A stretch of DNA of 64,000 bases from an uncultured delta proteobacterium (GCA_963755715.1 CAVWLW010000064.1:96001-160000); one strand, 5' to 3'; positions 1 through 56,390 are shown, counted from the stretch's first letter. Translations and numbers: made by a program. The notes: a model not told the origin generated them from the sequence alone.

Positions 1-1040
1 TATTTAAACTCCGGCATCACTTTCTCCGCGAAAAGACGAATATTTTTGAGCGCCAATTCCTGCGGCATGCCGCCGAAGTGAAAGGTGCCCGAGATAGTCG
101 TTAGACCGGTCTCGTCGCGCCATTTGCGAATCGTATCGGCGACTCGCTTGGGATCTCCCGCCAGCACAAAGCCGTGCTCCAATTGAGTTCTGGCATCGCG
201 TTGCGTCAGCAGCCCTTGCTCCTGGCGTTCGAGATCAGCCGCCTTGTGCACGTCGAAATAATTGATGAGATAGGGCTCCGCTTCGCGAATGGCGGCTTCT
301 AAACTGTCCGCCACGTAAATATGAAACTTGCCGAGAATGTCGGTTTTGCCGCCGTTATGACCCGCCGCGGTCAAGGCGTTTCGGTAGCTCTTGATGAATC
401 CGGGTAGTATTCCCGGTTCGCGATAGAGATAAGGCAGCGTCATCAGGTGAAAGCCGTGCTCGCCGGCCCAGCGAAAGCTATCTTCGCTGCGCGCGCATCC
501 GACCCAAAAATTGGGATGCGGCCGCTGCACCGGTTTCGGAAACACCGGCACGTTTTGATAGTTGTAAAACTCGCCCTTAAAACTGACCGGCTTGTCCGAC
601 CATGCTTGCAGCATCACTTCGACGCCTTCATACATGCGCTGGGTGGCTTCCTTTTGATCGACGCCGAACTTTTTGTACTCATGAGATTCGCTGCCTTTGC
701 CCACGCCGAAATCCAACCGGCCGTTGGAAATGACGTCGACCATCGCATAGGACTCGGCCACCTCGATCGGGTTGTGCAGCGGCAAAACATTGATGGCAAC
801 ACCCAGGCGAATCCGCTTCGTCGTGCGCGCGATGGCCGACATGAAAGTCGGCGGATGCGGCAGATCGCCGCCGTAGTGAGCGAAATGATGTTCGGTTACC
901 CAGACGTGATCGTAGCCAAGCCGATCCATTTCTTCCATCTGACCGAACATCTTTTGATAGAATTCCGTAACCGACCCGTCCAAGTCGGCGACGTAGGTCG
1001 GCAGATAATGCGCGCCGAATTTCATGCTTTTGCTAGCCAT
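1..1040 (-). CDS. LLM-class (luciferase-like) flavin-dependent oxidoreductase; stop codon cut by window edge
   Basis: Read by hand on the minus strand from ATG 1040: MASKSMKFGAHYLPTY...GYDHVWVTEHHFAHYGG...LPLHNPIEVAESYAMVDVISNGRLDFGVGKG...FAEKVMPEFK. Not in the ORF track because the stop is truncated. Confidence 0.9.
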   Translation of the reverse strand, partial: MASKSMKFGAHYLPTYVADLDGSVTEFYQKMFGQMEEMDRLGYDHVWVTEHHFAHYGGDLPHPPTFMSAIARTTKRIRLGVAINVLPLHNPIEVAESYAMVDVISNGRLDFGVGKGSESHEYKKFGVDQKEATQRMYEGVEVMLQAWSDKPVSFKGEFYNYQNVPVFPKPVQRPHPNFWVGCARSEDSFRWAGEHGFHLMTLPYLYREPGILPGFIKSYRNALTAAGHNGGKTDILGKFHIYVADSLEAAIREAEPYLINYFDVHKAADLERQEQGLLTQRDARTQLEHGFVLAGDPKRVADTIRKWRDETGLTTISGTFHFGGMPQELALKNIRLFAEKVMPEFK

Positions 1041-1121
1041 CAAGCTTCACAACCTCCAAATTTTATCCAACCAGATATAAGTTGGCACCGCGTGGGAGTC
1101 AACGCCGGGGTAAAAATGGCA

Positions 1122-1147
1122 AGGGCGTGATGAAATCACGCCTCTAC
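1122..1147 (-). repeat. GTAG-type REP-like palindrome
   Basis: Minus strand GTAG-A-GGCGTGAT-TTC-ATCACGCC-C. A similar element GTAAGGGCGCGGC-CTACC-GCCGCGCC lies at about 42291-42318. Confidence 0.5.
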
Positions 1148-1307
1148 TGTGAATTTGAAATGCCTCGACCCGCTACTTGCATGACTAGAAAAAATGCCAG
1201 AGTAGAAACTTTCGACATTCCATCACCGCGGACCGGGTCGTAAAAGAGTTATTCTCACCGATAGTCGGCAATGGGAGTTGGCTGCCGCACAACTCCTCCC
1301 AAATGGT

Positions 1308-2648
1308 TTATCCGCCCATTGCCACCGGTGGCGAGAATACCGTCGGTCCTTTGACCTCGGACTCGAGGGCTTTGAGCGCGGTTTGAATGATTTCACGGCG
1401 CAGGCGCGCGTCAAGTTCTTTGGATAAATTCGGATCGCCGCACGGATGCGGAATGCTCACGCCTTTGACGATGCGGTTGGCGCGCACCTGCTGCGCCACG
1501 GGAAACATCGCGCTGATCAACGCTACCGGTAAACCCGCCTTTTCAAGTTCTTTGCTCATCACAGCGCCGCTGCGACTGCACGTCCCTCACGTGGCGACAA
1601 ACAGGACTCCTTCGACGTTGTCTTTTTTTAAGTCCGCGGCGATTTCCTGACCGATGCGGCGCATCACCGTCGGCGAACCTTGGTTTCCGGGAATAACGTA
1701 ATAAGCCGGATAAAGTTTTCCCGGACCGATCGCGCCCTCGGCTTCCAGCGCGCGCAGCGCGTCGAGCGGCACGCCGTAGTGGGGATTCTGATTCATGTAC
1801 GCCACGTTGTAGCCGCCGTGCACCGCTTCCCATTTTCCCGGCTCGAGCTCTTTGAGCTCGGCGATATTGTATTTGCGCCAGTAGGTATTGCGATAAGTTT
1901 TGAACTTATCCGGATTGCCCCACGGCACCACCCCGCTGGTTGTCACTACGGCGATGTTGCGATCTTTTACTTGATCGAGTGGCGGCGCCGGCGGCGCGTC
2001 GTCCCACACTTCCATCGGCAGCTCGCTCTCGAACGGCTGGTTATTTATTTTCTTGAGCAGCATTTCGACCGCGCGCGTGGCGCCGCGGCGGTCGGTTTTC
2101 TCAATCCGTCGAATGCCGCGCCCGATGTAACCTTCTTTGGCCGCGGAACCGATCTCTTCACCGCGCGCTAGCCGGATCGCAAGGCGCGCCAAGCGCGTCA
2201 GCGCGTCGTTCATCCCCGTCGTCGCTTCCGCCGTCGGCAGGCAATAAACCCGCGCATTGACAAATTCGCGATAAGTGCCGACGCCCGGGTTCTCCTCGTG
2301 CATTGCGGTTAAGCAGGGAATTTGCAGCGCGTTGGCTACCGCATTGCAAATCTCGACGCAGGACAATCCGTAGCGGCCGGAGTTGAACGCCGGTCCCGCC
2401 ACCAAAACGTTGGGCTCCGCCGCGCGCACGGCGTCGAGAATCGCTTTGAGCGCTTCTTCTTTGTGCTCATGAAAGTAGTTATCGCCGACATACACCGTGC
2501 AAGCGATCTTGCCCTCGTCGCCGAGCTTTGGCTCCAAGCCGCGCGCCGCGCCGGCGCTGCCTTCGATCACGCCCACGGGCAAGCCCGCTTTTTCCTCGCC
2601 GCCGAGGCCGGCAAAAAATTGATTGACGACGTGAACGATTTTAATCAT
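1308..2648 (-). CDS. grdB: Glycine/sarcosine/betaine reductase family selenoprotein B (GrdB-like), 446 aa, Sec at codon 354 (TGA 1587-1589)
   Basis: N-terminus MIKIVHVVNQFFAGLGGEEKA, AGPAFNSGRYG and HGGY motifs. ORF 1587..2648 continues in frame through TGA into ORF 1308..1562: VAT-U-GTCSRSGAVMSKELEKAGLPV...IPHPCGDP, matching the GrdB U-x-x-C motif. Confidence 0.93.
1558..1576 (-). promoter_or_regulatory. Bacterial SECIS-like hairpin of the grdB-like gene
   Basis: UGA, a 10 nt spacer, then GUCGCAGC-GGC-GCUGUGAU (8 bp stem with two G-U pairs, G-containing apical loop). Confidence 0.7.
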
Positions 2649-2676
2649 GGCAACCGTCTCCTTAATATCTAGAAGA

Positions 2677-2786
2677 GTTCAAAACGTTCAACCGTTTGGA
2701 GCGGACCGCATGGTTCGACGGGCTCACCACGAACGGCATATTTTTCCGCTCATCCTGAGACGGTCGAAGGATTGAACGACTGGAAC
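2677..2786. repeat. Composite palindromic intergenic repeat (GTTCAA/TTGAAC arms around a TTCGAC...GTCGAAGG REP-like hairpin)
   Basis: GTTCAAAACGTTCAACCGTT ... TTCGACGGGCTCACCACGAACGG ... CCGCTCATCCTGAGACGGTCGAAGG ATTGAACGACTGGAAC. The inner hairpin resembles the interior of the element at 50935-51073. Confidence 0.7.
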
Positions 2787-2788
2787 AA

Positions 2789-4096
2789 TTAGTATTCCGC
2801 GCATCTAAATTCCCCTTGTCCCCAAATATCCGCCCCGCCCATCATGACATCACGCGCCTCCAATGACAAAGCGCCGCGTGCCGGCACCAGAGCCGCGCCG
2901 GGAAAAGGAAAAATTTTGATCTGTTCGTACGGACCGATGACTTTGTCCATTGCCGGCAGCTCGACGACTTTATCGAGGCTGCCCGTGCTCACTATCGCAT
3001 TCGCTTCGGCAATGTAAAACAGCACAGGACTGTCTTTGCCTTCCTTACCGCCATTCTCATAAGTGACCAAGGTGGTCTTAATGCCGTTTTGCTCACACGC
3101 GCGCACCGTGAGCATGACGTCGACGAAGGCGTTGCCGCCGCCGATCCAGGTCACCAGCGCGCCATCGGCGCCCATCGCTTTGGCCAGACGCGCGGCGTTC
3201 TGCGCGCCGACTTCTTTGCCGTGGCTGGTCTCAAAGCGAATGCGCTGCAAGACCACGCCGCCGAAGTTCAAGCTTTTGCCGTGCGCCGCGTACAACTCCA
3301 AAACCAAAGGATGGTTCTGCCAATCCCAGGTCGTCGGGTAATAGCCGCGCCCCGAGCGCGTCGTGTCCACCGTCACCGCGCCGTCAAAAAGCTCGTTGGG
3401 ATGAACAAACGTGGACATGGAATTACGCAACGAGAGCCCGTAATAACCCACGCCCGAATGCACGTGCTGCGGGTCGGTGATGCAGCCTTGCACCAGCATC
3501 ACATTCGGCAGCGCCGGATCTTTCTTGCTCAAATCATAAGTGGCGATCTCTACCGGCGAAAGTTCCGCCGTGACTTGGCCAAGCCGCTGGGCAACTTTAT
3601 ATTCGGCCGATTGAATTGCCCCGTGCGCATCCAACTCGCCCAAGCCCGGCGCGATCCTGAAGCTCAAAATCAGATGTCGGCACGAGCTAAACCGGGAAAT
3701 CTCCGCGCCCGGCCCGGACATATCGAGGATGGCGTTTCTTTGCACCGTCGTGCCGGCACGGATCGTGCCTTCGTACTCCGCCGCCGCGATGACGGTCATG
3801 CCGGACAGCCGATGAGTTCGGCCATCGCCGACGTTTTCGACGGCGCCTAAAACACCGGGGAAAACCTGGCCACTGCCCGCCACTTTAAAGCGCGGCTCGA
3901 CCATATCGCGTATGCCGGTGATGCGCGTCTTTTCGCCGGGCACAGCCACGGCCAGCGTTGCATCCGTGATCCGCGTATCTTCGAGGACGAGAGCGATCAG
4001 TTCGCCCTCGTCGACCTCGAGGATTTCGCTTTCGTATTTGAAACGACTCCCCAAGCGAATCTGCTTTACCGGAAATTCTGCGAGTTCGAGTTTCAA
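2789..4096 (-). CDS. Glycine/sarcosine/betaine reductase component B subunit (GrdE/GrdG/GrdI family)
   Basis: MKLELAEFPVKQIRLG, PGEKTRI...D.VEPR.K, FPG, G.GRTHRL.G, IDMSGPGA, HPNELFDGA, QNHP...LY..HGK.LNF.GV, GADGA and GN...D motifs. Adjacent to the grdB-like gene. Confidence 0.88.
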   Translation of the reverse strand: MKLELAEFPVKQIRLGSRFKYESEILEVDEGELIALVLEDTRITDATLAVAVPGEKTRITGIRDMVEPRFKVAGSGQVFPGVLGAVENVGDGRTHRLSGMTVIAAAEYEGTIRAGTTVQRNAILDMSGPGAEISRFSSCRHLILSFRIAPGLGELDAHGAIQSAEYKVAQRLGQVTAELSPVEIATYDLSKKDPALPNVMLVQGCITDPQHVHSGVGYYGLSLRNSMSTFVHPNELFDGAVTVDTTRSGRGYYPTTWDWQNHPLVLELYAAHGKSLNFGGVVLQRIRFETSHGKEVGAQNAARLAKAMGADGALVTWIGGGNAFVDVMLTVRACEQNGIKTTLVTYENGGKEGKDSPVLFYIAEANAIVSTGSLDKVVELPAMDKVIGPYEQIKIFPFPGAALVPARGALSLEARDVMMGGADIWGQGEFRCAEY

Positions 4097-4207
4097 CGTC
4101 TTCTCTTCAACGGTTTGAACGTTTGGAACGTTTAAATTCTTCTATGCCGCAAAACTACACCTATCCCGAAATATTCCAATCCCAGCGCTGTGATCGCATA
4201 AATTGGC

Positions 4208-5314
4208 TCACGGCGCCCCCATGATTTTGCGAAAGTCCTGAATATAGTTTTGCAGATTGGCGCCAAGCTTGGGACTCACGACGAAGTCCGGTTTGACTTG
4301 AAAATCTTTAAACTTGCTGCGCACACCTTTCATCGCGCTGCCTTTGCCCAAACTCGTTGCCAAAAAAGACTGCGCTTCATCGGAGAGAACCCATTCGACG
4401 AACAGCAGCGCAGCGTGCGGGTGAGGCGCGTTCTTCGCCAAAAACAGGCCCTCGGGTTTGACGATCGTCGGCGCAAGAACTTTAAATCCCAGGGGCGCCC
4501 CTTTTTCGCGAATCGCCGCCGAAGTCTCGCCGTTGATCGCGATGCCGACGGGATATTCGCCCGAAGTCACCACCTGTGTCGTCAAGGTGCCGCCGCGCCG
4601 ATAGCTCAAATCTTGCTTGGCTAACTTCGTCAAATAAGCGACTGCTTTTTCTCGCCCCCAGCTCTCTTCCATCGCTGCCAGAATATATCCCGCTTCCGGA
4701 TCGAAAAGCATTTTACCTTTCCATGCGGGGCTAAGCAGTTCGTCGTAGCTCTTCGGAGCCTGTTCCGCCTTGATGGAGTTGGTGTTGTAAATCAAGGCTG
4801 TGGTCAAATAGTACATGCTGTGCCAGTAGCCGTCGGGATCGTAGGTGCCGTCATAAAAACGCTTCGCGCCGGCGATCGGTTGCGGCTGCACGAGATTGGC
4901 GTTCAACAACTGATAGCCGTAACTCAGATCCACTTGAATCACGTCGGCCGCATGGCGCCCGGCCCGCGCTTCGGTCAACGTGCGGCTGAGAATGCCGTCG
5001 CGCGGCGAAAAATAATGCTGCAGTGCGATAGACCGGTAGCGCCCGTTAAAAACCCGCGCCAGCGGCAGAAACTCGTCGATCGGCAGCGTGCCGTAGTAGA
5101 CGAGCTCTCCTTCCGCCTGCGCGCCCTTGAGTAAATAACTGGTTCTTTCCTGCGGCTTGAGCGATCTTATCTTTACTGCAACTTCAGCGATCGTCGCCGC
5201 ATAGAGCGTAACCGTGGCATTCGCGCAGCTAATGAGGATCGCAAAAACCAAGCTGGCTTTAGCGACTGCGGCTTGATGGCGCCTTAGCCGATGAACTTTG
5301 CCGATGAGTTTCAT
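4208..5314 (-). CDS. Extracellular solute-binding protein (Fe3+/polyamine-like ABC SBP family), orphan
   Basis: GAQAEGELVYYG, YNT...APKSYDELL.P.WKGK and APHPHAALLFVEWVLSDEAQ motifs; hydrophobic N-terminal segment. Confidence 0.85.
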   Translation of the reverse strand: MKLIGKVHRLRRHQAAVAKASLVFAILISCANATVTLYAATIAEVAVKIRSLKPQERTSYLLKGAQAEGELVYYGTLPIDEFLPLARVFNGRYRSIALQHYFSPRDGILSRTLTEARAGRHAADVIQVDLSYGYQLLNANLVQPQPIAGAKRFYDGTYDPDGYWHSMYYLTTALIYNTNSIKAEQAPKSYDELLSPAWKGKMLFDPEAGYILAAMEESWGREKAVAYLTKLAKQDLSYRRGGTLTTQVVTSGEYPVGIAINGETSAAIREKGAPLGFKVLAPTIVKPEGLFLAKNAPHPHAALLFVEWVLSDEAQSFLATSLGKGSAMKGVRSKFKDFQVKPDFVVSPKLGANLQNYIQDFRKIMGAP

Positions 5315-5535
5315 ATCAGTTTCGTTTAGCAAAACGTTGAAGCGATCGTCAATGACGATGATCGGTCATGAAAAATGTTCACGCAACCACCCGAGTCTGA
5401 TTCAGCTAGAGCACTCGATAACCCAAGCGGCGATCCACGATCGTAAATCGGCCAAATTTGTCTGGCGCTGTACGAGATCAGCATACGACATATTGCGTAT
5501 TCTTGGCTCATTGACACCGTCGTAGTTTTTTCTTA

Positions 5536-5563
5536 TTGACATGGCTAGCCGGCATAATAAATT
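5536..5563 (+). promoter_or_regulatory. Putative sigma70 promoter
   Basis: TTGACA-N16-TAAATT upstream of the strong RBS GGAGGAGG of ORF 5614. Confidence 0.4.
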
Positions 5564-5613
5564 TTTCTTGTAGGGCTCGTTAAAATCGCTTTAAAGGGAG
5601 GAGGTGATACTAG

Positions 5614-9626: not shown

Positions 9627-10707
9627 TTATTGCACGATCGACGGCAATAAATCGCGCGCCAGAACCGTGATCGCTTCCTCATAGTCGGGGCCGAGCTTAG
9701 CCAAGCAAATTTGATCGAAGCCGTACTCTTGCGCGTAAGCGCACATTTCTTCGAGCGGTTTGACGCAGTCGCGCGGCGTGCCGGCAATGAAACCGATGTC
9801 GACCATCGCATCGGAGATCAGCGCCGAGACCTGCTCGATCGTGCCGCCCGCCTCGAAGGCCTGCTTAATTTGAATCACGGTCTCGCGCTCAACCCCTAAA
9901 GCCTGAAACTCTTCGTTCGAGAATCCCATCGCTTCGAGCACGACGAGCATATGGGCGATGTATCGCTTCGGAAAACTTCTCGCCTTTTGGTAATCGCTGG
10001 AGATCGAAATATTGATTTCGCAGACCTTTCGTAACTTCGTTTGGCGACCCGCATCTTTTCTTCCACGCTCGGTTTTTTCCAGCAGTCCGGCGAGCCTGCC
10101 GCTATGCACGAGCGGTTTGAAGAAGCCGCCGATCAGCACACCATCCATCACGCGGCCGGCGATCTCCATAATTCGCGGGCCGTTGCCGCCGCAATAAAAT
10201 AAAATCGGCGACTTCGGAGCAAAGCCCAATTGAATGCTGGAATTCGGGCGCAGGTTGAAGAACTCCGACAGCGACAGGATAGTCGCCGTATCTAACCGTA
10301 TCGCCGCGCAGAAGGCCCTTCATACATTCGACGGTCTCTTTCACCATGGCGATCGGTTTGACCATGTGGATTTGGTTGCCGGCTTGCGCGTAATCGCCGC
10401 GCGCGATACCCACGCTGATCTCACGACCGTCCATCAACTCCGACAGCGACGCGAAAGCATCGGCGGTATCCACTGGATTTCTGAAATACGGCACCAAAAT
10501 CGCAGTGCCGAGCTTGATCGGCACCTTCGACGCGATCGCGGTCAAAAGAACAAAAATATTTCTGTGGCCGAGATTGTCGTTGATCCAAAGCTGTGAAAAC
10601 TTATTGCGCTGAGCGTGCGCCGCGAGCTCGACCCATTGAGGTATGGAATAGTGCTTTGCGAGATGGGTCGTAAACTGTAAACCCACTTCACCCCGGTAAA
10701 CCGCCAT
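9627..10707 (-). CDS. LLM-class oxidoreductase, Mer-like, paralog of 6105-7184 (frameshift at about 10272)
   Basis: FSQLWINDNL, KLGTAILVPYFRNP, GGNGPRIMEIAGRVMDG, IAGTPRDC. Removing one base restores PVLSEFFNLRP, which aligns to the paralog PVLASYFHM. Confidence 0.85.
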
Positions 10708-25956: not shown

Positions 25957-27389
25957 CTATCTACCGGCGATTTTTTGTTCGAGAAATTCGCGCCAATCGC
26001 CGGCGACTTTCTCTTTCAGCGTGCGGCTGGCGCCGCTGACCTTGGGAAACTTTTCTTGCCACTCGTAGGGCCGGGTGGCGTCGATTATCGCGCGCGAGCT
26101 GTGGCCGACCCGATCGCGCGCGATGCGCGGGTCGAGCGGGCCGCTCCACGCGCGGCGCAGGATCTCGATCGACTCGGCCGGATCGGAACGGCTGCTGAGC
26201 GCCCACAAAAATTCTTCGGAATTGGTGATGTCGACGTCGTCGTCGACTACGACCACGTAGCGGCCCAGATACGCCCCCGAGCGGCACTGGCTCGCAATCA
26301 TGCCCGCCTGGCGCGCATGACCGGGGTAGCGCTGCTTGATCGAAACAACGGTTAGAAATCTGCCGCCGGCCGGATGGCACCACACGCCTTTGACATCGGG
26401 CACACCGGCTTCGTCCATCGCGTTCCAGATCAACGACGAGCGCATGAGCGAGAAATGCACATTGTCGCCGCTCGATGGTTTCAATAACGGGAAGCCGCAG
26501 AGAATCGGATCGTTGCGATAGTAAATCGCTTTGATTTGGATCACCGGCACGGCCGGCTGATTGCTCGCGTAGTAACCCGTCCATTCACCGAAAGGCCCTT
26601 CGGGCATAACGTCTTCGACCCCGACTTCGCCTTCGATGGCGATCTCGGCATCGGCGGGAATCGGCAAGCCCGTGAGCGGCCCGTGAATAACTTGTAGCGG
26701 CTTACCGAGAATGCCGCCGGCGTAATCATACTCGTTGACCCGGTTGGGCACGTCGGTCGATGCCACGACGAAATTGATCGGATGGTGGCCGAATGAAACT
26801 GCGACGGGAAATGGTTTTCCCTGCGCGTGATATTTGTCCTTGTGCACGCGGCCATGCTTGCCTGGCGACATGTGCAGCGCCAGACGATCCGGGCCATGCA
26901 CCATAATTCGGTAAGTGCCGACGTTCACCCAATCTTCTTCCGGGTCGCGCGTGATACCAGATCGTCGGTGCCGATGTAGCGCCCGCCGTCGAGCTCGTGC
27001 CAGCGCGGCACGGGAAACTGGAGCACGTCGATGTCTTTGCCCTGCTTGACGTTTTCGAAGAGCGGTCCGGTTCGAACCGTTTCAGCGCGAATCGGTGTAA
27101 TTTTCTTCACCTGCTCGCGCCAAGCCTGGACAAAATCCATATCGCTCAGACCCGCTTTCATGCCGAGCGTCAACGCCAAACGTCCGACTGAAGAAACCAA
27201 ATTCGCCGCGACCCGATAGCCTTGGGGATAATCTTTGATGCGATCGAAAACGATCGCCGGTCGCGTCCTCGAGCGCTCGTTGATGATTTCCGTAAGCGTC
27301 GACAGCTCGAGATCCCAGTGAGCGTTTTCAACGGTCATCAACTGGCCGAGTTTATCAACGTCGCTAAGCCAAGTGCGTAGGTCTGGCAT
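25957..27389 (-). CDS. UbiD-family (prFMN-dependent) decarboxylase (frameshift at about 26955)
   Basis: DLRTWL, PAIVFDRIKDY, FPVPRWHELDGGRYIGT, (TRDPE)..VNVGTYR, PEGPFGEWTGYY, VVVVDDDVDI and IIDAT motifs. Confidence 0.92.
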
Positions 27390-32016: not shown

Positions 32017-33146
32017 CTATTGCAGTATCTCTTCGGCGAACTTCGCCGAAGGAATTCTTACGCCCTTGTACTTATCTTCCAGATGATTTCTGACTTCATG
32101 GTATTGCTGCACGGTTAAACATCTTTCGCCGCCACCGCGCCGAATTCCTTGAGCCACTTGGTGTCCACGTCCAGACGGCGTGTCGATTGATGCATGACTT
32201 TGACGTAAAGTTCCTGCCCCTCTTTCGACAGTAACCAATTGACAAAAACTCTTGCCGCGTTGGGATGGGGCGGATTTTTCACCACGCCGATGACGCCGGA
32301 ACCATTCGAGGAAGGCAAGCCTTCCTTCATTTTTGGCAACTCCTTGATCGGCAGATTGGCAGTAAGAAATCCCTCCAGTGTATAAAAGCTCACGCCCAAG
32401 GCGACGGCGAGCTTGCCTTTAGCGAGCGCATCGCCCAACTGGCGCTGATCGCGGCTGATAAAGAGATCTTGCTGCACGAGCTTTTTCAAATAGCTCTCGC
32501 CTTTGATGTCCCAGAGAAACGACCAGATCGATTGTCCCGAGCCCGGCGTGCGTGGATCGAGGAAGCCGACTTTGCCTTTCCACTGGGGCTTCAATAAATC
32601 ATCGAGGCTGCGAATCTCGTCCGGCTTTAACATTTTTGTGTTGTACCAAAAACCGCCGGTGCCGGCGTCGGCGATAAAGGAATAAAGAAAACGATTGGTG
32701 CTGACATTGTCTTCCCAGATATGGCCACCCCACCAGTTTTTCGCCTCTTTGACTTCGGGCAAGATCATCATGGCGTCCAGAGGCTCGGTCATGCCGGATT
32801 CGACGAGCGACTCGTAGGTGCCCGAGCCGCCGATGAACACATCGAAGTTTTTGACGCCGGCGGCGAACTCCGCGGCGATCTTGCTGGCGTTCTGCGGTCC
32901 TCTTGCCGTTGAAAGATCCATATCGATACCGAACTTTGGCTTGAACACTGCTTCCAGTTCTTTTCTAAGCTCGGCACGTGCGGGAATTCCGACGACGATC
33001 ACCCCTTCTTTTTTGGCCTCTTGCAGGCTTCTCTCCCATTCCTTTTTCCAATCGACTTGCGCCTGCGCGGTGTGCGCCGCACCCCAAGACAATAGGCCCA
33101 AAAGTATGGTGAAGAGTTTTTGTTTTGTTCGACGTGAAACTCTCAT
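32017..33146 (-). CDS. Extracellular solute-binding protein, orphan (frameshift at about 32117)
   Basis: WKKEWE....AKKEG, DLLKPQWKGK...DPR and PPHPNAARVFVNWLLSKEGQ. Adding one T to GTTTA joins ORF 32017..32238. Confidence 0.85.
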
Positions 33147-33290
33147 GTGCTTACTCTTTCTGAGCGCGCGCTTTCAAAGCGCGTCTGTCCTGATTGCTGC
33201 CGCCGACCGTATCGCATCGGCGGGAGAGATCAAGACCGGAACGCCAGCTTTTCCTGGCATCGAGTAATGAGGTATAACCCTAACTGCGCG

Positions 33291-34958
33291 ATGAAAGTTC
33301 TCCTCGTCCAACCGCCGGTTCAGGATTTTTACGACACCGACGTGCGCCTGCAACCTATCGGTCTCGCCTATCTCAAAGCCGCCATTCGAAAACATCTACC
33401 CGATATCGACGTCACCATCCAAGACTATCACAGCGGCTGCGGTCGACAGACCGTGCCGATTCCGAAGGAGCTGCGCTACCTAGCCGAATATTATCCGGTC
33501 GCCGACAAATCGCCGTTTTCCACCTTTCATCAGTATTATCACTTCGGCAAATCCTTCGATCAGATCGAAAGCGAGATCGCCGAGCTAAAACCCGATGTGG
33601 TTGGCATCTCCTGCCTCTTCACGCCGTATTACCGCGAAGCTCTCGAAGTGGCCGCGCGCGTAAAGAAGCGAGCCAACGCCATTGTCGTCATGGGCGGCTC
33701 GCACGCATCGGCAGTGCCGGAATCTTTGCTAGCGTCGCCACACGTCGATTACGTCATCCGTGGCGAAGGCGAAAAACCGTTCGTTGAATTCCTGGGGGCT
33801 ATTCAAAATCAGCAAAGCGTCGATGGGCTTCCAAACCTTGCGTACAAGCGCGACGGCGCATGCGTTCTCAACCCTCTTCAGGACAACTTTCCGATCGACG
33901 ACTTGCCGATCCCCGACCTCAGCGATTTTTCGCCAATGAATTACACGCTCGCCGGCAAAGCCATGACGTTCATGATCACCTCGCGCAGTTGCCCGCACAA
34001 ATGTTCCTTTTGCTCGGTGCACACGACTTTCGGCACGAACTACCGGCGGCGCTCGCTGCAGAATGTTCTGGAAGAAATCGAGCTGCGCTATCAGCAAGGC
34101 TATCGCGTGATCGACTTCGAAGACGATAATCTTACTTATTACAAACAGACTTTCAAAGAACTCTGCCGGCGGCTGATCGCTCGCTTTCCCAATCGCGAGC
34201 TGGAATACGTCGCCATGAACGGCATCAGCTATTTAAGTCTCGACGATGAGCTGCTTGAGCTGATGTACCAAGCGGGCTTCTCGCATTTGAATCTCGCTCT
34301 CGTCAGCTCCGACAAAACCGTGCGCGAAACCACCAAGCGGCCGCATACGCTCGAAGCCTACGTGAAAGTCGTGAACAAGGCGCATCAGCTCGGCTTTAAA
34401 ATCGTTTCCTACCAAATCCTCGGCCTGCCCAACGAAAGTTTGGACAGCATGATTCAAACGCTCGCCTTCAATGCGCGCCTCCCCGTCCTGCTCGGCGCTT
34501 CGCCGTTCTATCGCACGCCGAATTCGCCCATCGCCCGGGGATTGGAACTCAATGAAACCGATTATGTCCGCGCTCGCTTGACCGCCCTGGCGATTGAAAC
34601 TGAGACTTTCTCTCGCGACGACATCTATACCCTCTTTGTCACGACGAGAATTATTAATTTCCTGAAAGGTCTGCCGCTTCGGTCTACAACGACTCTCGGC
34701 TCTCTAGTCAGCGCAGCACCCGAAACCCACAAAGCGGGAATCGGCTTGCTTCTACTCAAGCAGCTTTTGACGACCAGGCGCTTATACTTTTTGACGAAAC
34801 AAGGGCTGGAGGAAAATCGAAAATTTGTCAGCGGAATATTTTTCCGAGTGCTTTCAGAAGTAGAATCCATCGCCTGTCAAAACGGCCACTCTGTCATCGT
34901 CGACGATTTCCATCGCCGACATGACGGGACCGGGGCAACCTTAATAAATTTGACATAG
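33291..34958 (+). CDS. B12-binding-domain radical SAM protein
   Basis: MKVLLVQPP, PIGLAYL, PDVVGIS, VMGGSHAS, DYVIRGEGE, TSRSCPHKCSFC (CxxxCxxC) and FEDDN motifs. Confidence 0.92.
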   Translation: MKVLLVQPPVQDFYDTDVRLQPIGLAYLKAAIRKHLPDIDVTIQDYHSGCGRQTVPIPKELRYLAEYYPVADKSPFSTFHQYYHFGKSFDQIESEIAELKPDVVGISCLFTPYYREALEVAARVKKRANAIVVMGGSHASAVPESLLASPHVDYVIRGEGEKPFVEFLGAIQNQQSVDGLPNLAYKRDGACVLNPLQDNFPIDDLPIPDLSDFSPMNYTLAGKAMTFMITSRSCPHKCSFCSVHTTFGTNYRRRSLQNVLEEIELRYQQGYRVIDFEDDNLTYYKQTFKELCRRLIARFPNRELEYVAMNGISYLSLDDELLELMYQAGFSHLNLALVSSDKTVRETTKRPHTLEAYVKVVNKAHQLGFKIVSYQILGLPNESLDSMIQTLAFNARLPVLLGASPFYRTPNSPIARGLELNETDYVRARLTALAIETETFSRDDIYTLFVTTRIINFLKGLPLRSTTTLGSLVSAAPETHKAGIGLLLLKQLLTTRRLYFLTKQGLEENRKFVSGIFFRVLSEVESIACQNGHSVIVDDFHRRHDGTGATLINLT

Positions 34959-34978
34959 ACAGGAGCCTGTACTACCCT
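34950..34978 (+). promoter_or_regulatory. Putative sigma70 promoter of the ABC operon
   Basis: TTGACA-N17-TACCCT, 36 nt upstream of ATG 35015. Confidence 0.55.
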
Positions 34979-35014
34979 TCCGACCGCTCGTCGGAAATCA
35001 CGGCAGGAGGCAAA

Positions 35015-36088
35015 ATGAAAAAATTACTATTAGTTCTGTTGTTGTCGGGTATGCTGGCGGCGCAGCTCTCTCGGAGCTATTCGGCGGAAAGCAACCCTAC
35101 TGTCACGGCAGCGCAAAAGGAAGGAAAGCTCGTTATCTATTCTTCGACGGACTCGGCCAGCGTCGAGCCGCTGCTGCAGGATTTCAAGGCGCTCTATCCG
35201 TTTCTTCAAGTCGAGTACAATGATCTCAATACCACGGAGCTCTATAATCGTTTCACCGCCGAGGCAGCTTCCGGCGCCGGCACGGCGGATTTCATGTGGA
35301 GCTCGGCAATGGACCTGCAGCTTCAGCTCGCGAGCAAAGGCAACGCTCTGAGTTACGCCTCGCCGGAAATTTCCGGCTTGCCCAAGTGGGCGGTGTGGCA
35401 GAATCAAGCTTATGGCACGACCTTCGAGCCGGTAAGCTTCGCGTACAACAAACGGCTATTGGCCGCCGATGCGGTGCCGCAGAGTCATGCCGATCTGGTT
35501 CGTTTGATGAAAGAGAAGCACGACGTGTTCAAGGAAAAAATCGCCACCTTTGATCCGGAAAAAAGCGGTGTCGGATTTCTCATGATGACTCAAGACGCGA
35601 AAGTGTTCCCGCAGTTCTGGGATCTCGCCAAAGGTCTCGGCGCCACCGGCGCAAAAGTTTATACAAGCACAGGCGCAATGCTGGAGAAGGTCGGTTCAGG
35701 CGAGCATACTTTGGCCTATAATATTATCGGCTCCTATGTGCTGCTGCGCCAGAAAAAAGATCCGTCTCTCGGCTTGGTATTGCCGAAGGATTACACGCTC
35801 GTGTTTTCGCGCGTCGCTTTTATTTCCAAGACAGCGCGCAATCCCAACGCCGCCAAACTATTTCTCGACTACGTTCTTTCCAAACGCGGCCAGACCGTGA
35901 TGTCCGAGAAATCCCTGGTCTATTCGATTCGCAGCGACGTGTCTGGACCGATCACCGCCGCCGGCCTCACCAAGGATCTCGGCAAGGCATTGAAACCCAT
36001 CGAGGTGAACACGGATATTCTCGCCGGTCTCGAACAAAACAAGCGCTTGGAATTCATGAAACAGTGGAAGGAAGCACTGAAAAGATAA
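35015..36088 (+). CDS. Fe3+/FbpA-family ABC transporter substrate-binding protein
   Basis: Signal peptide; AAQKEGKLVIYS, WSSAMDLQ and NPNAAKLFLDYVLSKRGQ; first gene of a complete ABC operon. Confidence 0.9.
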   Translation: MKKLLLVLLLSGMLAAQLSRSYSAESNPTVTAAQKEGKLVIYSSTDSASVEPLLQDFKALYPFLQVEYNDLNTTELYNRFTAEAASGAGTADFMWSSAMDLQLQLASKGNALSYASPEISGLPKWAVWQNQAYGTTFEPVSFAYNKRLLAADAVPQSHADLVRLMKEKHDVFKEKIATFDPEKSGVGFLMMTQDAKVFPQFWDLAKGLGATGAKVYTSTGAMLEKVGSGEHTLAYNIIGSYVLLRQKKDPSLGLVLPKDYTLVFSRVAFISKTARNPNAAKLFLDYVLSKRGQTVMSEKSLVYSIRSDVSGPITAAGLTKDLGKALKPIEVNTDILAGLEQNKRLEFMKQWKEALKR

Positions 36089-36092
36089 ACTT

Positions 36093-37760
36093 GTGAGCCG
36101 GACTCTCCGTTCCTTCGCGGTGATCGGCGTAGGCCTGGTGGTCTTCGGACCGCTGGGGCTCATCATTTACCAAAGTTTTCTTAGCGAAGCTTTCTTTAGC
36201 CCGACGGCCGCCCTGAGCCTCGGCGCCTATCGTTACGTTCTCACCGATTCCGGTTTTCACTCCGCCTTCGGCACCTCTCTGCTGGTTTCCCTCGGCATGA
36301 CATTGATCTCGGTTCCGCTCGGCAGTCTGCTGGCGTTTTTGCTCGTGCGCACCGATTTGCCGGGAAAGAAATTTCTCGAGCCCTGGCTGCTCGTGCCGAT
36401 CTTCCTCTCGCCTGTTGTATTGGCTTTCGGCTACGTCGTTGCCGTCGGCCCGGTTGGATTCTTTTCGCTCTGGACGAAGGCGTTGGTCGGCCGCGTGCCG
36501 TGGAATCTGTATTCCCTTTACGGCATGATTTTGATCGCTGGCCTCACCCACGTGCCTCATTCTTTTCTTTATGTCTCCGCTGCGCTGCGCAGTTTAGACC
36601 CATCGGTCGAGGAGGCAGCGCGAGTTGCCGGCGCCGGCCCATGGCGCATTGCGGCAACGGTGAGCCTGCCTTTGGTGCTACCGTCGATTCTGTTCAGCGC
36701 GTCTTTGATATTTTTGCTGGGCTTCGAATTGTTCGGCTTGCCCCTCGTGCTGGGCGATCCCGCCGGTCTGCTCGTGCTCACGACCTATTTATACAAGCTC
36801 ACCAATCTGCTCGGCGTGCCTTCCTACCACCTCATGGCTGTCGTTGCGCTCTCGATCGTTGCGCTGACTTTCCCATTGGTCTACGCGCAGCGCCGCATGC
36901 TGCGCACCGCCGGCCGCTTTGCGGTGATCGGTGGCAAAGGCCAGGCGTTCCGCCCTCTGCCCCTCGGCGCGTTGCGCTGGCCTGCCGTCGCGATCGTTTT
37001 GCTGTGGTTGATAGTAACGGTCCTATTGCCGCTGATCGGTGTTGCCTTGCGCTCGGTCGTTAGCCAATGGGGCGAAGGAATCAAGTTATCCGAAGTTTTG
37101 ACCTTGGATCATTTTCGCGAGCTCCTAGGTTATCCCAATTTGGTCCGCGGCATCGTCAATACGCTATTGATCGGCAGCATCGGCGGCGCGTTGTCCGTCG
37201 TATTCTACGCCGTAATCGGCCTAGCCGCGCACCGCTGGCAGAGCCGCTGGGTTTCGTTTCTCGATTATCTGGTGATGTTGCCGCGCGCTCTGCCCGGACT
37301 CATCGTCGGCTTGGCATTTCTCTGGGTGTTTTTGTTTTTCAAACCGATCGCACCGCTGCGCACGACGTTATTCAGCTTGTGGATTGCCTATACGGTTGTC
37401 TGGCTCGCCTATGGATTGCGTCTGATCTCCGCCGCCTTGTTGCAGGTGAAACCGGAACTGGAGGAAGCCGCGCGCGTTACCGGCGCGGGCCAAGGCACGG
37501 TTTACCGCGACGTGACGCTGCCGCTGATTCGCTTCGGTCTGATCGGCAGTTGGCTGCTCGTGTTCATGATGTTCGTGCGCGAATACTCGACCGGAGTCTA
37601 TTTGCTCGGCCCTGGCACCGAAGTGATCGGCTCGTTGATCGTCTCGCTCTGGGGCACCGGTGCCTTGGATTTGATCTCGGCGCTCTCCGTCATCGAAATT
37701 GCTTTGGTCGGCTTGATACTTTTTATCGCCCTTCGTTTAGGAGTGAGACTCGATGCCTGA
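36093..37760 (+). CDS. FbpB-like ABC transporter permease (duplicated domain)
   Basis: Two EAA loops (VEEAARVAGA, LEEAARVTGA); about 12 TM segments. Confidence 0.92.
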   Translation: MSRTLRSFAVIGVGLVVFGPLGLIIYQSFLSEAFFSPTAALSLGAYRYVLTDSGFHSAFGTSLLVSLGMTLISVPLGSLLAFLLVRTDLPGKKFLEPWLLVPIFLSPVVLAFGYVVAVGPVGFFSLWTKALVGRVPWNLYSLYGMILIAGLTHVPHSFLYVSAALRSLDPSVEEAARVAGAGPWRIAATVSLPLVLPSILFSASLIFLLGFELFGLPLVLGDPAGLLVLTTYLYKLTNLLGVPSYHLMAVVALSIVALTFPLVYAQRRMLRTAGRFAVIGGKGQAFRPLPLGALRWPAVAIVLLWLIVTVLLPLIGVALRSVVSQWGEGIKLSEVLTLDHFRELLGYPNLVRGIVNTLLIGSIGGALSVVFYAVIGLAAHRWQSRWVSFLDYLVMLPRALPGLIVGLAFLWVFLFFKPIAPLRTTLFSLWIAYTVVWLAYGLRLISAALLQVKPELEEAARVTGAGQGTVYRDVTLPLIRFGLIGSWLLVFMMFVREYSTGVYLLGPGTEVIGSLIVSLWGTGALDLISALSVIEIALVGLILFIALRLGVRLDA

Positions 37761-38809
37761 TCTGATCGTGGAGAATATCGAAAAGCAGCTCGGGCACGGC
37801 GCAAGTTTTGTGCGGCGTGTCCTTCGAGCTACAACAAGGCGAAGTCCTCGCTCTCCTGGGCGCCTCCGGCAGTGGCAAGACGACGTTGCTGCGCTCGGTC
37901 GCCGGCCTTGAGCGTCCCGACAAAGGCAAGATCGAAATCCGCGGCAAAGTCGTGTTTGACGCGGCGAGCGGGTTTGAAATTCCCGCGGAGCAGCGCGGCC
38001 TGGGATTGGTTTTTCAATCCTACGCGATTTGGCCGCATCGCAGTGTGTTTGAAAACGTCGCCTATGGCTTGCGTTTAAGACACGTGGCCGACACAGAGAT
38101 CCGCCAGAGGGTCGGCGACGTGTTGGCGCGCCTTGGACTCGGCCATCTAGCGGACCGCTACGCGCATCAATTGTCCGGCGGCCAGCAACAACGGGTCGCC
38201 CTCGCGCGCGCGATCGTTTACAATCCGCCGGTCTTGTTGCTCGACGAACCGCTGTCGAACCTCGACGCCAAGCTGCGCGAAGACGCCCGCGCCTGGGTGC
38301 GCGAGCTCATCAAACAAATCGGCAATAGCGCGCTCTATGTCACCCATGACCAAACCGAGGCATTGGCGATCGCCGATCGCGTGTTGTTATTGGATCGAGG
38401 ACAGATTCAACAAGACGGCACGCCTCAAGAAATCTACGGCCGTCCGACCAGCCAGTTTGCCGCTGAGTTTATGGGCAGCAACAACCGCTTCGATGGCAAG
38501 ATCGCCGAGATCTCCGGCAATCGCGCCCGCCTCGAAAACCACGGCTGGAGTCTGTGGGGCAAATTGCGCGGCAATAAAGAGCCCGGCGCGTCGGGTACGG
38601 GACTGATCCGGGTCGAGCGGGTGCGCTTAGCCGACGGTGGCGGCGAAAACCATCTGAAGATGCAACTGAAGTCCGCTCTCTATTTAGGCGAGCGCTGGGA
38701 ATACGTGCTTCAGCTCGGCGACTTGCGCCTGCGTGTTTGGGGCGAAGAAGCGCGCGCCCCCGGCGAATGTTGGGTGGCGATCCCGCAAGAGGAATTCTGG
38801 ATTTTCTAG
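37753..38809 (+). CDS. FbpC/PotA-like ABC ATP-binding protein (5' frameshift at about 37793)
   Basis: GASGSGKT, LSGGQQQRVALAR, LLDEPLSNLDAKLR, TOBE-like tail; ATG 37753 overlaps the permease stop. Confidence 0.92.
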
Positions 38810-53428: not shown

Positions 53429-53702
53429 CGTGCGGCGGCACAAATATCCTGGGGGTTAAGGTGCCTATCGTGCAAATCAAATCGTGAACCACCGCAGGAC
53501 ATCGACCACACTGCGATGAGAGAAATGACAGCGCGTTATCAAACCCAAAAAAGCGCCGGCGCGCACTTTATTCTGCACAAAGTTAGAACCTGACTGCCGG
53601 CAATGAATGTGAGATTCGTCTGCCCTTGACGCTGGTTCGCGAGATCGCATAGGTTTGACTGAACATTGACTGCTTGCAAGTAGCCGAGAGGAGGCTTTAA
53701 TC

Positions 53703-55364
53703 ATGGCCGACGATACGAACGGAACTGAAAAAATCTCCGTGCTCAATCCGGTAGGATTTCCGCCCAAGATCACGCCCAAGCCGATGGCGCCGCGGCTGGA
53801 AAGCCTGGACGGCAAAACCATTTATTTAGTCGACCCCCGCTTCGACGACTCGGGGCTGTTTCTGCGCCAGGTGCAAGACTGGTTCGCCGAGCACATGCCC
53901 TCTGTGAACACCAATCTTGTGGAGATGTCGAGCGTCTACACCAAGGACGATCCGAAAACCTGGGAGATGATCAAGGCCAACGGCGACGGCGCCATCATCG
54001 GTGTCGGCCATTGAAGCACTTGCGCGCCGGCGGTCGCCGTGCACGCAATCGCTCTCGATAGCAAATACGGTGTGCCCACCGTGGCTATCCACACTAACGT
54101 CTTCGAGAAGGCCGTGCAGTCGGTGACGCGCATGCATGGAATGCCCCAAGCGCGTTACACTTTCGTGCCCCAACCGGTCATGGGCAAGACCGCCGAACAG
54201 CTACGAGCGTACGTCGACGGCAAGAGCCCGATCAGTGGCCGCCCAGTGATGCAGGAAGTCATCGAAGGACTCACCCGCCCAGCCGAAGGCGATCATCTGA
54301 AGGAAATCAAGTTCGAGCGCTCCACGCCGAGATTGGTGGACTCCGATACAGACGACAACCTGCATCATCTGTTCCTGGAAAATAATTGGACGGACAAGTT
54401 ACCGATCGTTTTGCCGACGGAAAAGCGGGTAGCGGAAATGCTCGCGCATACGAGCCGCAAGCCGGACGAGGTCGCCGGGCATATCCGCTCGAACCAATTT
54501 CGTCAGCACTGGGAATTCACCGTCGAAAAAGTCGCGGTCAATGCCGTGATGGCGGGCGCGAGCCCGGAATATTTTCCGGTGATCCTGGCCTTGGCGGCAA
54601 GCGGCGTGAGCGCGCGCGGCAGCACGACGAGCTCGATGGCCGCAATGGTCGTCGTCAACGGCCCGATCCGAAATGAAATCGGCATGAACTCGGGCACCGG
54701 CGCCATGGCGCCTTACAATCACGCCAACGCGACCATCGGGCGTGCTTATGGTTTGCTATCGCAAAATCTCCAGGGCGGGTCGATCCCGGGAGACAGCTAC
54801 ATGGGCTCCCAGGGCAATGGCTACGCCTACGGCAGCGTGACGTTCGCCGAGAATGAGGAGCGCAGCCCGTGGACGCCTTTTCACGTGCAGCATGGGTTCA
54901 AGCCGACGGACAGCACGGTGAGCATATTTACCGGCTGCCGCTCCACGGCGTTCACGCTCGGCGTGCGCGAGAAATACTGGCGCGAGCATGTGCGCAACAT
55001 GCTGCGCGGCATGGACGCGCACAGCGCACCGACGTTTCTGCTCGACCCGATCGCGGCGCGCCAGTACATCGACCGCGGCGGCTTCGACACCAAGGAAAAA
55101 ATGATCGAATGGGTTTACGAAAACGCGCTGATGCCCGCGGGTGAGTATTGGGATTATCAGCTGATCCAGAATTACATTTACCCGCGTGCGACGTTCGGCG
55201 AAGAACCCTACGCATCGAAGCTGAAAGCGGCGCCGGAGGAAATGATCAAGATGTTCAAGCCCGATGAAATTCACATCGTAGTCGTCGGCGGCGAAACCAA
55301 CGGCTACTGGCGCATCATGGGATGCAACTATCAGAAGACCGTTTCAGTGGATGAATGGAGATAA
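53703..55364 (+). CDS. UGSC-family selenoprotein fusion, 553 aa, Sec at codon 104 (TGA 54012-54014)
   Basis: MAPRLESLDGKTIYLVD...DGAIIGVGH-U-STCAPAVAVHAIALDSKYGVPTV reads in frame from ORF 53703..54014 into ORF 54039..55364. The C-terminal domain has WTDKLPIVLPT, TVEKVAVNAVMAG, VVNGP, ANATIGRA and FAENEE.SPW. Confidence 0.88.
54015..54053 (+). promoter_or_regulatory. Bacterial SECIS-like hairpin
   Basis: Starts directly after UGA: AGC/GCU, UUGCG/CGCAA, GC/GC, bulged U, CGGC/GCCG, apical loop GGUC. Confidence 0.75.
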
Positions 55365-55370
55365 AAACTC

Positions 55371-55441
55371 GTAAGGGGTGAATGGTAAGGGGTCAGGCGT
55401 CCCTCCGATACACCTTACGCCTCACCCCTAACCCCTCACGC
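55371..55441. repeat. Inverted heptamer array
   Basis: GTAAGGG GTGAATG GTAAGGG GTCAGGC GT ... AC ACCTTAC GCCTCAC CCCTAAC CCCTCAC; a related half-array lies at 46826-46850. Confidence 0.7.
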
Positions 55442-55463
55442 ATCTTCAGAGGGCAACCTCGGT

Positions 55464-56390
55464 ATGGCTGACTACGACGTCATAGTCATCGGGTCCGGCC
55501 TAGCCGGTCTGACCGCCGGCCTATTCGCTGCCCGCTGCGGTCTCTCGACCTTGGTCATGGAATCGAACATTCCCGGCGGTCATTTGATCAGCATCGAGAA
55601 GATCGAGGACTTTCCTGGCTTTCCCGACGGTGTCGCCGGCTACGAATTATGTCCGACAGTGCAGCGCCAAGCCGCCGACCAGGGCGCCGAGTTCCAACGC
55701 GCCGAAGTGCAGAGCCTCGAAGCAAGGGATCGCCTTTGGTCGGTTAACACCGACGAAGAATCCCACCTAGCCAAAGCGGTCATCGTCGCCACCGGATCGA
55801 CGCTCAAAGACCTCGGTATCCCAGGCGAAGCGAAGCTGCTCGGCCGCGGCGTCAGTCATTGCGCGAGCTGTGACGGGCCGCTTTACAACGGGCAAGTCGT
55901 CGGCGTCGTTGGCGGCGGCGACTCTGCTTTGCAGGAAGCGCTCACGCTTTCGAGCTACGCCGAGTCCGTTGTAATTTTTAACCGGGAAGAAAGTTTTTCC
56001 GGCCAACATTCCTATCTCCAAAGAGCTTTGAGCGATCCAAAGATATCGTCGCGCTATCGAACCGCTGTGGAAGAAATTTTAGGTGACGACGTCGTGAGCG
56101 GCGTGCGCGTGCGCGAGTTGTTAACCAATGAAGTATCGCAAATCGACTTGGCCGGTTTATTCGTTTACGTCGGCATGAAGCCGAATACTGCATTCTTGAA
56201 AGGCCTCGTGAAACTCAGCGATACTGGGCACGTGCCGACCGATGGCTCGATGAAAACCGAGCGTGACGGTCTCTATGCCGCCGGCGATATTCGTCAGGAT
56301 TCGGCGGCGCAAGCGATCGCTTCGGCGGGCGATGGCGCCACCGCCGCAATCGCGGCATACAGTTATATCCAATTGGCTTTTCCCAAATAG
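55464..56390 (+). CDS. trxB: Thioredoxin-disulfide reductase (low-MW TrxR family)
   Basis: IIGSGLAGLTAG, GRGVSHCASCDG (CxxC), GGGDSA, GLYAAGD and QAIASAGDGATAA motifs. Confidence 0.9.
   Translation: MADYDVIVIGSGLAGLTAGLFAARCGLSTLVMESNIPGGHLISIEKIEDFPGFPDGVAGYELCPTVQRQAADQGAEFQRAEVQSLEARDRLWSVNTDEESHLAKAVIVATGSTLKDLGIPGEAKLLGRGVSHCASCDGPLYNGQVVGVVGGGDSALQEALTLSSYAESVVIFNREESFSGQHSYLQRALSDPKISSRYRTAVEEILGDDVVSGVRVRELLTNEVSQIDLAGLFVYVGMKPNTAFLKGLVKLSDTGHVPTDGSMKTERDGLYAAGDIRQDSAAQAIASAGDGATAAIAAYSYIQLAFPK

Follow-up and report, generated by a model that had tools for sequence, protein, structure and literature searches.

The stretch analysed here, 64,000 nucleotides from an uncultured delta proteobacterium (GCA_963755715.1, CAVWLW010000064.1:96001-160000; hereafter the window), carries on its minus strand a module composed of a solute-binding protein (SBP), a GrdE-like subunit (E) and a GrdB-like selenoprotein (B). 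With a probability of roughly 0.6, we read SBP-E-B as a substrate-specific protein B module of the GrdI/FarE kind, one among about six in the genome, whose product would be passed to a shared GrdA/GrdC pair working without GrdD. The initial annotation of the window had presented an orphan reductase component. The module is orphan only on the local map and not functionally, because grdC and grdA are present elsewhere in the genome and stand beside the same module in relatives.

Linkage of the module to grdC and grdA

The genome is a Binatia metagenome-assembled genome (MAG) of 7.4 Mb in 76 contigs, estimated to be 93.6% complete. Four co-directional genes occupy positions 1-5332 of the minus strand of the window in the order SBP, GrdE-like, GrdB-like and luciferase-like monooxygenase (LLM), the arrangement that the initial annotation had described. 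No GrdA, GrdC or GrdD gene was found in the window, also as it had stated, and the sole GrdA and GrdC matches of the genome lie on another contig, C69. There, a GrdA with the selenocysteine (Sec) motif C-F-V-U (NF040748, 191 bits; cut-off 130) adjoins a GrdC (NF040746, 507 bits; cut-off 450). The idea that grdA, grdC and grdD would be missing genome-wide held for GrdD, which had no match, and failed for this grdC-grdA pair. A thioredoxin gene near the module was likewise said to be lacking, and none of the 69 window open reading frames (ORFs) of at least 80 amino acids (aa) matched a thioredoxin family in a Pfam scan; a TrxB-sized Pyr_redox_2 gene lies at 55464-56390, about 50 kb from the module.

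We fetched 74 related loci, nearly all from Binatia or old "Deltaproteobacteria" MAGs, and treated as orthologous the 31 whose E is at least 70% identical to that of the window; 11 of these 31 hold less than 2 kb downstream. Across them protein identity ranges from 71 to 97%. Among the 27 orthologous loci that reach 1 kb or more upstream, 26 have the SBP gene directly upstream of E; B follows E directly in 16/25 and farther downstream in 3 more, and an LLM is found downstream in 11 of the 17 with at least 4.5 kb downstream. Of the 17 orthologous loci that extend 5 kb or more downstream, four (L040, L041, L063 and L081) have grdC-grdA linked to the module, all genes lying on one strand in the order UbiD, NMT1 binding protein, E', SBP, E, B, E'', GrdC, GrdA. 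The E proteins of these four loci are 74-77% identical to the window E, with the same loop and the same SBP upstream. This linkage is the decisive observation against a functional orphan. At two other loci (L056 and L069) a paralogue-type B-E pair is followed by GrdC.

The co-occurrence of these genes across the class points the same way. Among 151 evenly drawn class genomes, 16 contain E-like genes and 15 of these 16 contain GrdA, a 22-bit match without a TGA in a 722-aa frame having been discounted; GrdC is present in the same 15 genomes and adjoins grdA wherever both positions are listed. Families are split, certain genera holding E-like genes, GrdA and GrdC together and others none of them. 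On other contigs, the genome of the window also has five additional E-like and four additional B-like genes, and several of these modules lie near binding proteins of their own: that of contig C25 by an SBP_bac_8 protein, that of C63 by two NMT1 proteins and that of C56 near an SBP_bac_5 protein.

Two of the additional modules deserve a separate mention. The E/B pair at C14:73281-76062 is broken, E being split into three or more pieces and B into two, and its B motif, U-G-S-S-T-R-C-G, is unlike that of the other copies. Beside the C56 E/B paralogue, and divergent from it, lies a gene for a 500-aa DUF255/Thioredox_DsbH protein (L115:4370-5872), a candidate reductant of the system.

The initial annotation had further supposed that the acetyl-phosphate-forming module is dispensed with. 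This is borne out for GrdD: its model had no match in the 93.6% complete genome of the window, gave at best 19.6 bits in four single-chromosome Binatia assemblies, each with one grdC-grdA pair, and produced 0 matches at E <=1e-10 in the 151 class genomes; the same model scored 558 bits in a Bacillota control genome. On this evidence the Binatia lineage appears to be without GrdD. In work from the Andreesen laboratory, GrdD is reportedly the subunit bearing the thiol that forms acetyl phosphate. We looked for a GrdD stand-in or a thioredoxin near grdC-grdA in the four complete genomes and saw none, the neighbours being mostly mobile or defence genes. The sole recurrent neighbour is a 504-aa ORF without a Pfam match (L118:4096-5610 and L119:3648-5162), located upstream of grdC on the opposite strand in genomes G002 and G003; in G005, a 91% match to it lies inside an 888-aa ORF near grdC-grdA (L121:4365-7031).

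The surroundings of the orthologous loci offer some further observations. A UbiD decarboxylase gene and an NMT1 binding protein gene lie directly upstream of E' in the four linked loci, and two UbiD genes are found within 10 kb downstream of the window module; this proximity may be due to chance because both families are very numerous in these genomes. A wider synteny (a major facilitator superfamily (MFS) gene, a second LLM and a GntR gene) was rejected as conserved context, being kept in three close relatives only.

Family placement of E and B

The GrdE-like subunit (2789..4096, minus strand; 435 aa) matches PF09338 with 318.6 bits (6.4e-95; cut-off 22.2), and the GrdB-like selenoprotein (1308..2648, minus strand; 446 aa from the ATG at 2648) matches PF07355 with 385 bits (4.9e-115). 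The B protein belongs to the TIGR01918 subfamily (445.9 bits; cut-off 65.45) and falls below the equivalog cut-offs of GrdF (NF040794, 438.7/800), GrdB (TIGR01917, 411.7/602.2), GrdH (NF040795, 404.3/775) and PrdB (TIGR04483, 79.1/300). Similarly, the best NCBIfam match of E, GrdG (NF040793), gave 240.8 of the 780 bits required, followed by FarE (NF053623, 109.9/675) and PrdA (TIGR04480, 19.3/700). The module is then a TIGR01918-type B with a PF09338 partner that lies under the cut-offs for glycine, sarcosine, betaine, fluoroacetate and D-proline reductases alike. Neither E nor B had a relative of solved structure in a sequence search of the PDB (E <=0.01).

A phylogeny led to the same placement. 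In a FastTree tree of 125 rows, in which the canonical proteins were represented by four context-verified GrdI and four rows carrying an S-G-N-C (SGNC) motif, the window E joined the C63 paralogue of its own genome and P0126 with a support of 99. This trio nests in Cys-less clades of 11 rows (support 98) and 23 rows (support 100); a separate 12-row clade (98) counts four SGNC rows and the four GrdI among its members. In an approximately unbiased (AU) test on a 48-row IQ-TREE tree, forcing the window clade together with the canonical clade cost 170.8 log-likelihood units (p-AU 7e-89), the tree groups having been named after the first tree was viewed, which weakens the formal test and leaves the effect size unaffected. 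Together, these trees place the window E in a Cys-less clade apart from the canonical SGNC and GrdI clade, and a position outside the canonical reductases, as the initial annotation had anticipated, is supported by the distance to all NCBIfam equivalog cut-offs as well.

The missing cleavage cysteine of the GrdE-like protein

A cysteine is the cleavage residue of E proproteins, according to PMC10838667. In the window E, the DGAI-x-SGN-C cleavage site is replaced by the loop FDGAVTVDTTRSGRGYYPTTWDWQNHPLVL (3299..3388, minus strand; residues 237-266), and the peptide quoted in the initial annotation, DGAVTVDTTRSGRGYYPTT, is found exactly in the translation. Its claim that no cleavage cysteine is present extends to the relatives, the Cys-less loop TVDTTRSGRGYYP being identical in 31/31 orthologous loci. 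When E was aligned with 121 full-length sequences, each representing a cluster at 50% identity, Thr246 fell in the Cys column of the SGNC proteins.

The same alignment indicates that the absence of the cleavage cysteine is the rule in the family and not a peculiarity of the window gene, because S-G-N-C occurs in only 5/121 representatives (P0194, P0219, P0236, P0246 and P0274). One more, P0221, has a cysteine in the cleavage column in another context (NYC). The SGNC rows were labelled by their motif and their GrdG-model score (384-631 bits; cut-off 780); among the 115 representatives scanned with this model, six long ones having been left out, these five and P0202 were the only ones to score better than 1e-110, and none reached 780 bits. 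The four Bacillota GrdI (loci L109 and L111-L113), whose GrdH partners score 799-843 bits and so exceed the NF040795 cut-off, read S-G-S-F. The studied SGNC-type enzymes would accordingly be the exception within a mostly Cys-less family.

Within the Binatia-type rows, TWDWQNHP is kept in nearly all, with L091 and three rows of 33-38% identity deviating, and the stretch before it differs by paralogue type. Position 246 is Leu in six sister paralogues (L074, L076, L077, L078, L080 and L088); therefore, processing at Thr is no clade-wide trait. The closest relatives of E form more than 120 clusters at 79-98% identity, in which Binatia is the commonest source organism name and the others are soil metagenome proteins. 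In two Bacillota loci of the Peptococcaceae (L093 and L094) we observed an E/B pair without the cysteine (SGNH) in a genome with a full grdD-grdC-grdA set; therefore Cys-less modules also occur beside complete machinery.

Selenocysteine in the GrdB-like protein

The frame of B contains one TGA (1587..1589, minus strand) in the motif T-U-G-T-C-S-R-S-G; with this codon read as Sec, another 92 conserved residues follow. All 43 Binatia-type B homologues from the fetched loci (58-96% identity) have a stop in frame at this place and share the motif U-G-[TS]-C-[ST]-R-S-G, and the codon of the Sec site was confirmed as TGA in 42/43, all but L042. Of 46 alignments, 45 had TGA as the first stop; in the remaining one, again L042, a TAA occurs earlier, within the N-terminal extension of the query. 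The 20 bases that follow the TGA, AGTCGCAGCGGNGCTGTGAT, hardly vary across the 43 sequences, third codon positions included. A hairpin resembling a selenocysteine insertion sequence (SECIS) was found in the consensus fold of these sequences at 1553..1580 (minus strand), starting a few bases 3' of the TGA; of its 10 pairs, 7 are the same in every one of the 43 sequences. No compensatory changes were present in it, so that its support is synonymous-site conservation and not covariation, and the fold of the single sequence after the TGA was ordinary (z -0.48), the signal coming from the alignment. The genome has the means for decoding Sec, a tRNA-Sec and a SelB of 416 bits against a cut-off of 242. 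This pattern of conservation argues that the selenocysteine of the GrdB-like protein is real. The window B keeps Sec362 and Cys365, and has Ser where the canonical UxxCxxC motif carries its second Cys.

Proposed working of the module and alternative explanations

The reading that we favour would proceed as follows. The binding protein would capture an external compound for an ATP-binding cassette (ABC) importer encoded elsewhere, and the cytoplasmic E/B would bind this carboxylate, whose alpha-substituent would already be a leaving group; a Schiff base would therefore be unnecessary. Sec362 of B would displace the leaving group, and the resulting carboxymethyl-type selenoether would move to the Sec of GrdA. 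The thiolase-fold GrdC would then accept the acyl unit, leaving GrdA oxidised and in need of reduction by a thioredoxin-type system. With GrdD missing, the acyl unit would exit outside the textbook acetyl phosphate step, perhaps as a coenzyme A (CoA) thioester or as the free acid. That a Cys-less E may pair with a substrate already bearing its leaving group, as the initial annotation had reasoned, has printed precedents in GrdI and FarE, for which a Sec attack without Schiff-base activation is proposed in PMC10838667. The same source describes farACEB, which encodes a Cys-less E/B together with a transporter away from the grd genes and is predicted to rely in trans on GrdA and protein C.

Several observations weigh against this reading, in addition to the late naming of the tree groups already mentioned. 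No B follows E within the available sequence in 6/25 orthologous loci, and in 13 of the 17 with at least 5 kb downstream no GrdA or GrdC is found within the available sequence. The grdC of the genome (C69:65710-67138) changes frame near its C-terminus, the profile matching positions 3-444 in one frame and 444-477 in another. This is a frameshift or an assembly error; in genomes of the same genus grdC matches 3-476 or 3-477 in a single frame. One class genome, G386 (95% complete, 80 contigs), has an E-like gene, but neither GrdA nor GrdC was found in it. Moreover, every module-bearing genome has other E/B modules and kin are non-independent, and therefore the co-occurrence is not assignable to this clade alone. 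Lastly, a Cys is present at U+3 in 43/43 clade homologues, which would also suit a self-contained turnover.

This last point belongs to the alternative that survives best, which we nonetheless regard as unlikely: a stand-alone E/B in the style of D-proline reductase, in which Cys365 would resolve the selenoether of Sec362 to yield a Se-S bond and the free acid, with no part for GrdA/GrdC. D-proline reductase works without GrdA or protein C and is therefore the model for such an enzyme. The invariance of U-x-x-C in the clade would fit it, the C57, C56 and C25 paralogues of the same genome having no Cys at U+3, and so would the absence of grdA and grdC from the window and from the 13 loci just mentioned. 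However, grdC-grdA follows the module on the same strand in four orthologous loci, E-like genes and GrdA/GrdC go together in 15/16 genomes, and the PrdA and PrdB models give only 19.3 and 79.1 bits. The Prd mechanism also requires a pyruvoyl group, which the window E is missing.

Less probable still is that the module is a divergent-looking but ordinary glycine, sarcosine or glycine-betaine reductase, with a carbonyl that might form at Thr246. In its favour, the matches to both Pfam families run over the full length, Thr246 sits in the column of the cleavage Cys without variation among the 31 orthologues, and the end of the loop, T-W-D-W-Q-N, resembles the T-Y-D-F-Q-N of the context-verified GrdI. 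Nevertheless, the GrdB, GrdF, GrdH and GrdG equivalog models all stay far under their cut-offs, the tree and the AU test set E apart, and sister paralogues carry Leu at the position of Thr246; to our knowledge, no pyruvoyl-type processing takes place at Thr. A decaying or silent paralogue without current function, for which one could cite the broken copy on C14 and the split B or E frames in the related loci L021, L028, L042, L043 and L047, is hardly credible given the intact frames in the window, the invariance of the active-site loop across 31 orthologous loci (71-97% protein identity), the conserved TGA and hairpin and, as a weak point, the RNA-library contigs that match parts of all four genes at 90-99%.

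Returning to a module that feeds a shared GrdA/GrdC, a wider picture can be sketched tentatively, and we consider it rather doubtful. Binatia might run a stripped-down system in which Cys-less E paralogues, each with its own loop and its own SBP, share one Sec-containing B and one GrdA-GrdC to cleave leaving groups off imported alpha-substituted carboxylates. With GrdD absent, GrdC would yield the two-carbon unit directly as a CoA thioester or an acid and not as acetyl phosphate, and the process would serve carbon scavenging instead of an anaerobic, energy-conserving Stickland reaction.

Comparison with known systems

The E/B module is a new clade, each odd feature of which has a printed precedent in GrdI or FarE/FarB. 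The closest likeness is to farACEB of Cloacibacillus porcorum MFA1, as described in PMC10838667: both are E/B modules located away from grdA/C/D with an uptake component of their own, both have an E without processing cysteines and a selenoprotein B off the canonical cysteine pattern, and in both the carboxymethyl selenoether is predicted to go on to a GrdA and a protein C that are shared. The window E is not FarE, because the FarE model gives 109.9 bits against 675. The window module uses a secreted ABC-type binding protein whereas farACEB has an MFS antiporter, and no iron-sulphur oxidoreductase gene is found here. In addition, the host of the window is an aerobe-type Binatia without grdD, whereas a figure legend in PMC10838667 lists grdABCDEX for the Synergistota host.

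The GrdI/GrdH system of the Eubacterium acidaminophilum type shares with the window module an E that is no proprotein, a B that is a Sec protein and a loop that ends in aromatic-Asp-aromatic-Gln-Asn. It differs in that the window B scores 404.3 of the 775 bits required by the GrdH model, and that the window E branches outside the GrdI clade and has DTT-RSG in place of the SGSF-MPC of GrdI. The betaine reductase system uses GrdC and GrdD. With the GrdE/GrdB glycine reductase the module has in common the two Pfam families, the Sec in B, and a GrdA (C-F-V-U) and a GrdC in the genome; in contrast to it, the window E is without the cleavage Cys, GrdD was not found in the genome, and the genes are spread over three contigs with no adjoining thioredoxin gene. 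With PrdA/PrdB the module shares its superfamily and the use of Sec. It differs from them in its low scores on the two models (PrdA 19.3 of 700 bits, PrdB 79.1 of 300) and in that PrdA is made as a pyruvoyl proprotein.

In the textbook view, Grd-type selenoenzymes serve Clostridia in anaerobic Stickland reactions that yield ATP. The machinery described here comes as a set of paralogous modules, without the acetyl-phosphate subunit, amid oxygenase genes in a widespread soil lineage. A grdC-grdA core without GrdD, the presence of several E paralogues for each B, the pairing with a secreted SBP and an aerobic soil host were not found in print. Our literature search, over titles and the starts of abstracts, returned no GrdD-less glycine reductase system, and nothing on a Binatota glycine reductase or on Binatia selenocysteine; the main text of PMC8262859 makes no mention of betaine, selen-, glycine reductase, trimethylamine or grd. 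Identification of the substrate would bring further reductive cleavages of C-X bonds into the turnover of carbon, nitrogen or sulphur in soil and would also reveal the role of a GrdC acting alone.

Host, habitat and transcription

Binatota are described as aerobic methylotrophs in PMC8262859, and the genome of the window contains three haem-copper oxidase subunit I genes. The stretch was detected at 0.67-0.78 of the sampled words in 14 runs, which comprise soil and rhizosphere metagenomes and one coded organism; they come from seven named studies and from three runs naming none, and the top run may be the source sample. In four RNA libraries from four studies, short low-depth contigs match parts of all four genes at 90-99%, one of them (2516-2786) covering the beginning of B together with the spacer between E and B; stretches without such cover carry no meaning. 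These contigs give a weak hint of transcription, weak because DNA carry-over is not excluded and there is no strand, level or DNA-free control, nor a silent stretch for comparison.

Binding protein, monooxygenase and other genes of the window

The SBP gene (4208..5314, minus strand) encodes 368 aa from its ATG, within an ORF that opens at a TTG at 5332. The protein is of the cluster-D type, matching SBP_bac_8 (Pfam, 5.7e-18), SBP_bac_6 and SBP_bac_1. Its orthologues have signal-peptide-like N-termini ending in ..A-A-T-[IV]-A-E-V, and the SBP is accordingly predicted to be secreted by means of an N-terminal signal peptide. The nearest fold to its structural model (pLDDT, the predicted local confidence, 83.5) is MctA, a metal-citrate binder (7f6e; template-modelling score 0.73-0.80, 20% identity), followed by binders of ferric ion (FbpA/FutA), sugar phosphate (AfuA) and pyridoxal phosphate (P5PA) at about 20% identity. 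These neighbours, all binders of anions or metal-anion complexes, would fit a carboxylate ligand; they would neither favour nor exclude a zwitterion and are silent on an onium group (N+/S+), one kind of substrate that the initial annotation had suggested. Naming the ligand from them was rejected, relatives at about 20% identity being too distant. The window also contains three SBP paralogues at 23-27% identity and a complete ABC system of the same type (35015-38809), which might serve as the translocator for the SBP.

A weak promoter-like site lies upstream of the SBP gene at 5554..5583 (minus strand; 9/12 consensus matches). The consensus scan of this upstream region gave 8 sites where 3.1 were expected, which is no evidence of function, and the promoter and terminator scans were set aside as regulatory evidence, having yielded weak consensus matches only.

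The LLM gene (1..1043, minus strand; 347 aa), whose stop codon straddles the start of the window, matches PF00296 with 210 bits (7e-62) and reaches no NCBIfam equivalog; its nearest solved relative is 7bip (1.8e-41). The LLM was discarded as a clue to the substrate, the nearest solved proteins being uncharacterised or luciferase-type. The window as a whole is rich in LLMs, Rieske/LigXa-type oxygenases, UbiD decarboxylases and NMT1- and TctC-type binding proteins, and has one flavin reductase. An LLM at 9627-10707 and a UbiD at 25957-27389, both on the minus strand, each consist of two adjoining or overlapping ORFs that cover the halves of their Pfam models, possibly as a result of frameshifts.

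A second selenoprotein candidate is located at 53700-56390 on the plus strand. Its frame spans 555 residues from 53700 and fuses a UGSC-family domain, which opens with an in-frame TGA (U105, in G-H-U-S-T-C), to a domain of about 400 aa without a Pfam match; the Pyr_redox_2 gene mentioned above (308 aa) follows it directly. Finally, in the region 32115-38809, a B12-binding radical S-adenosylmethionine gene (33147-34958) lies between two binding proteins of the SBP_bac_8/1 type and adjoins the complete ABC system, which consists of a fused two-domain permease and an ATPase.

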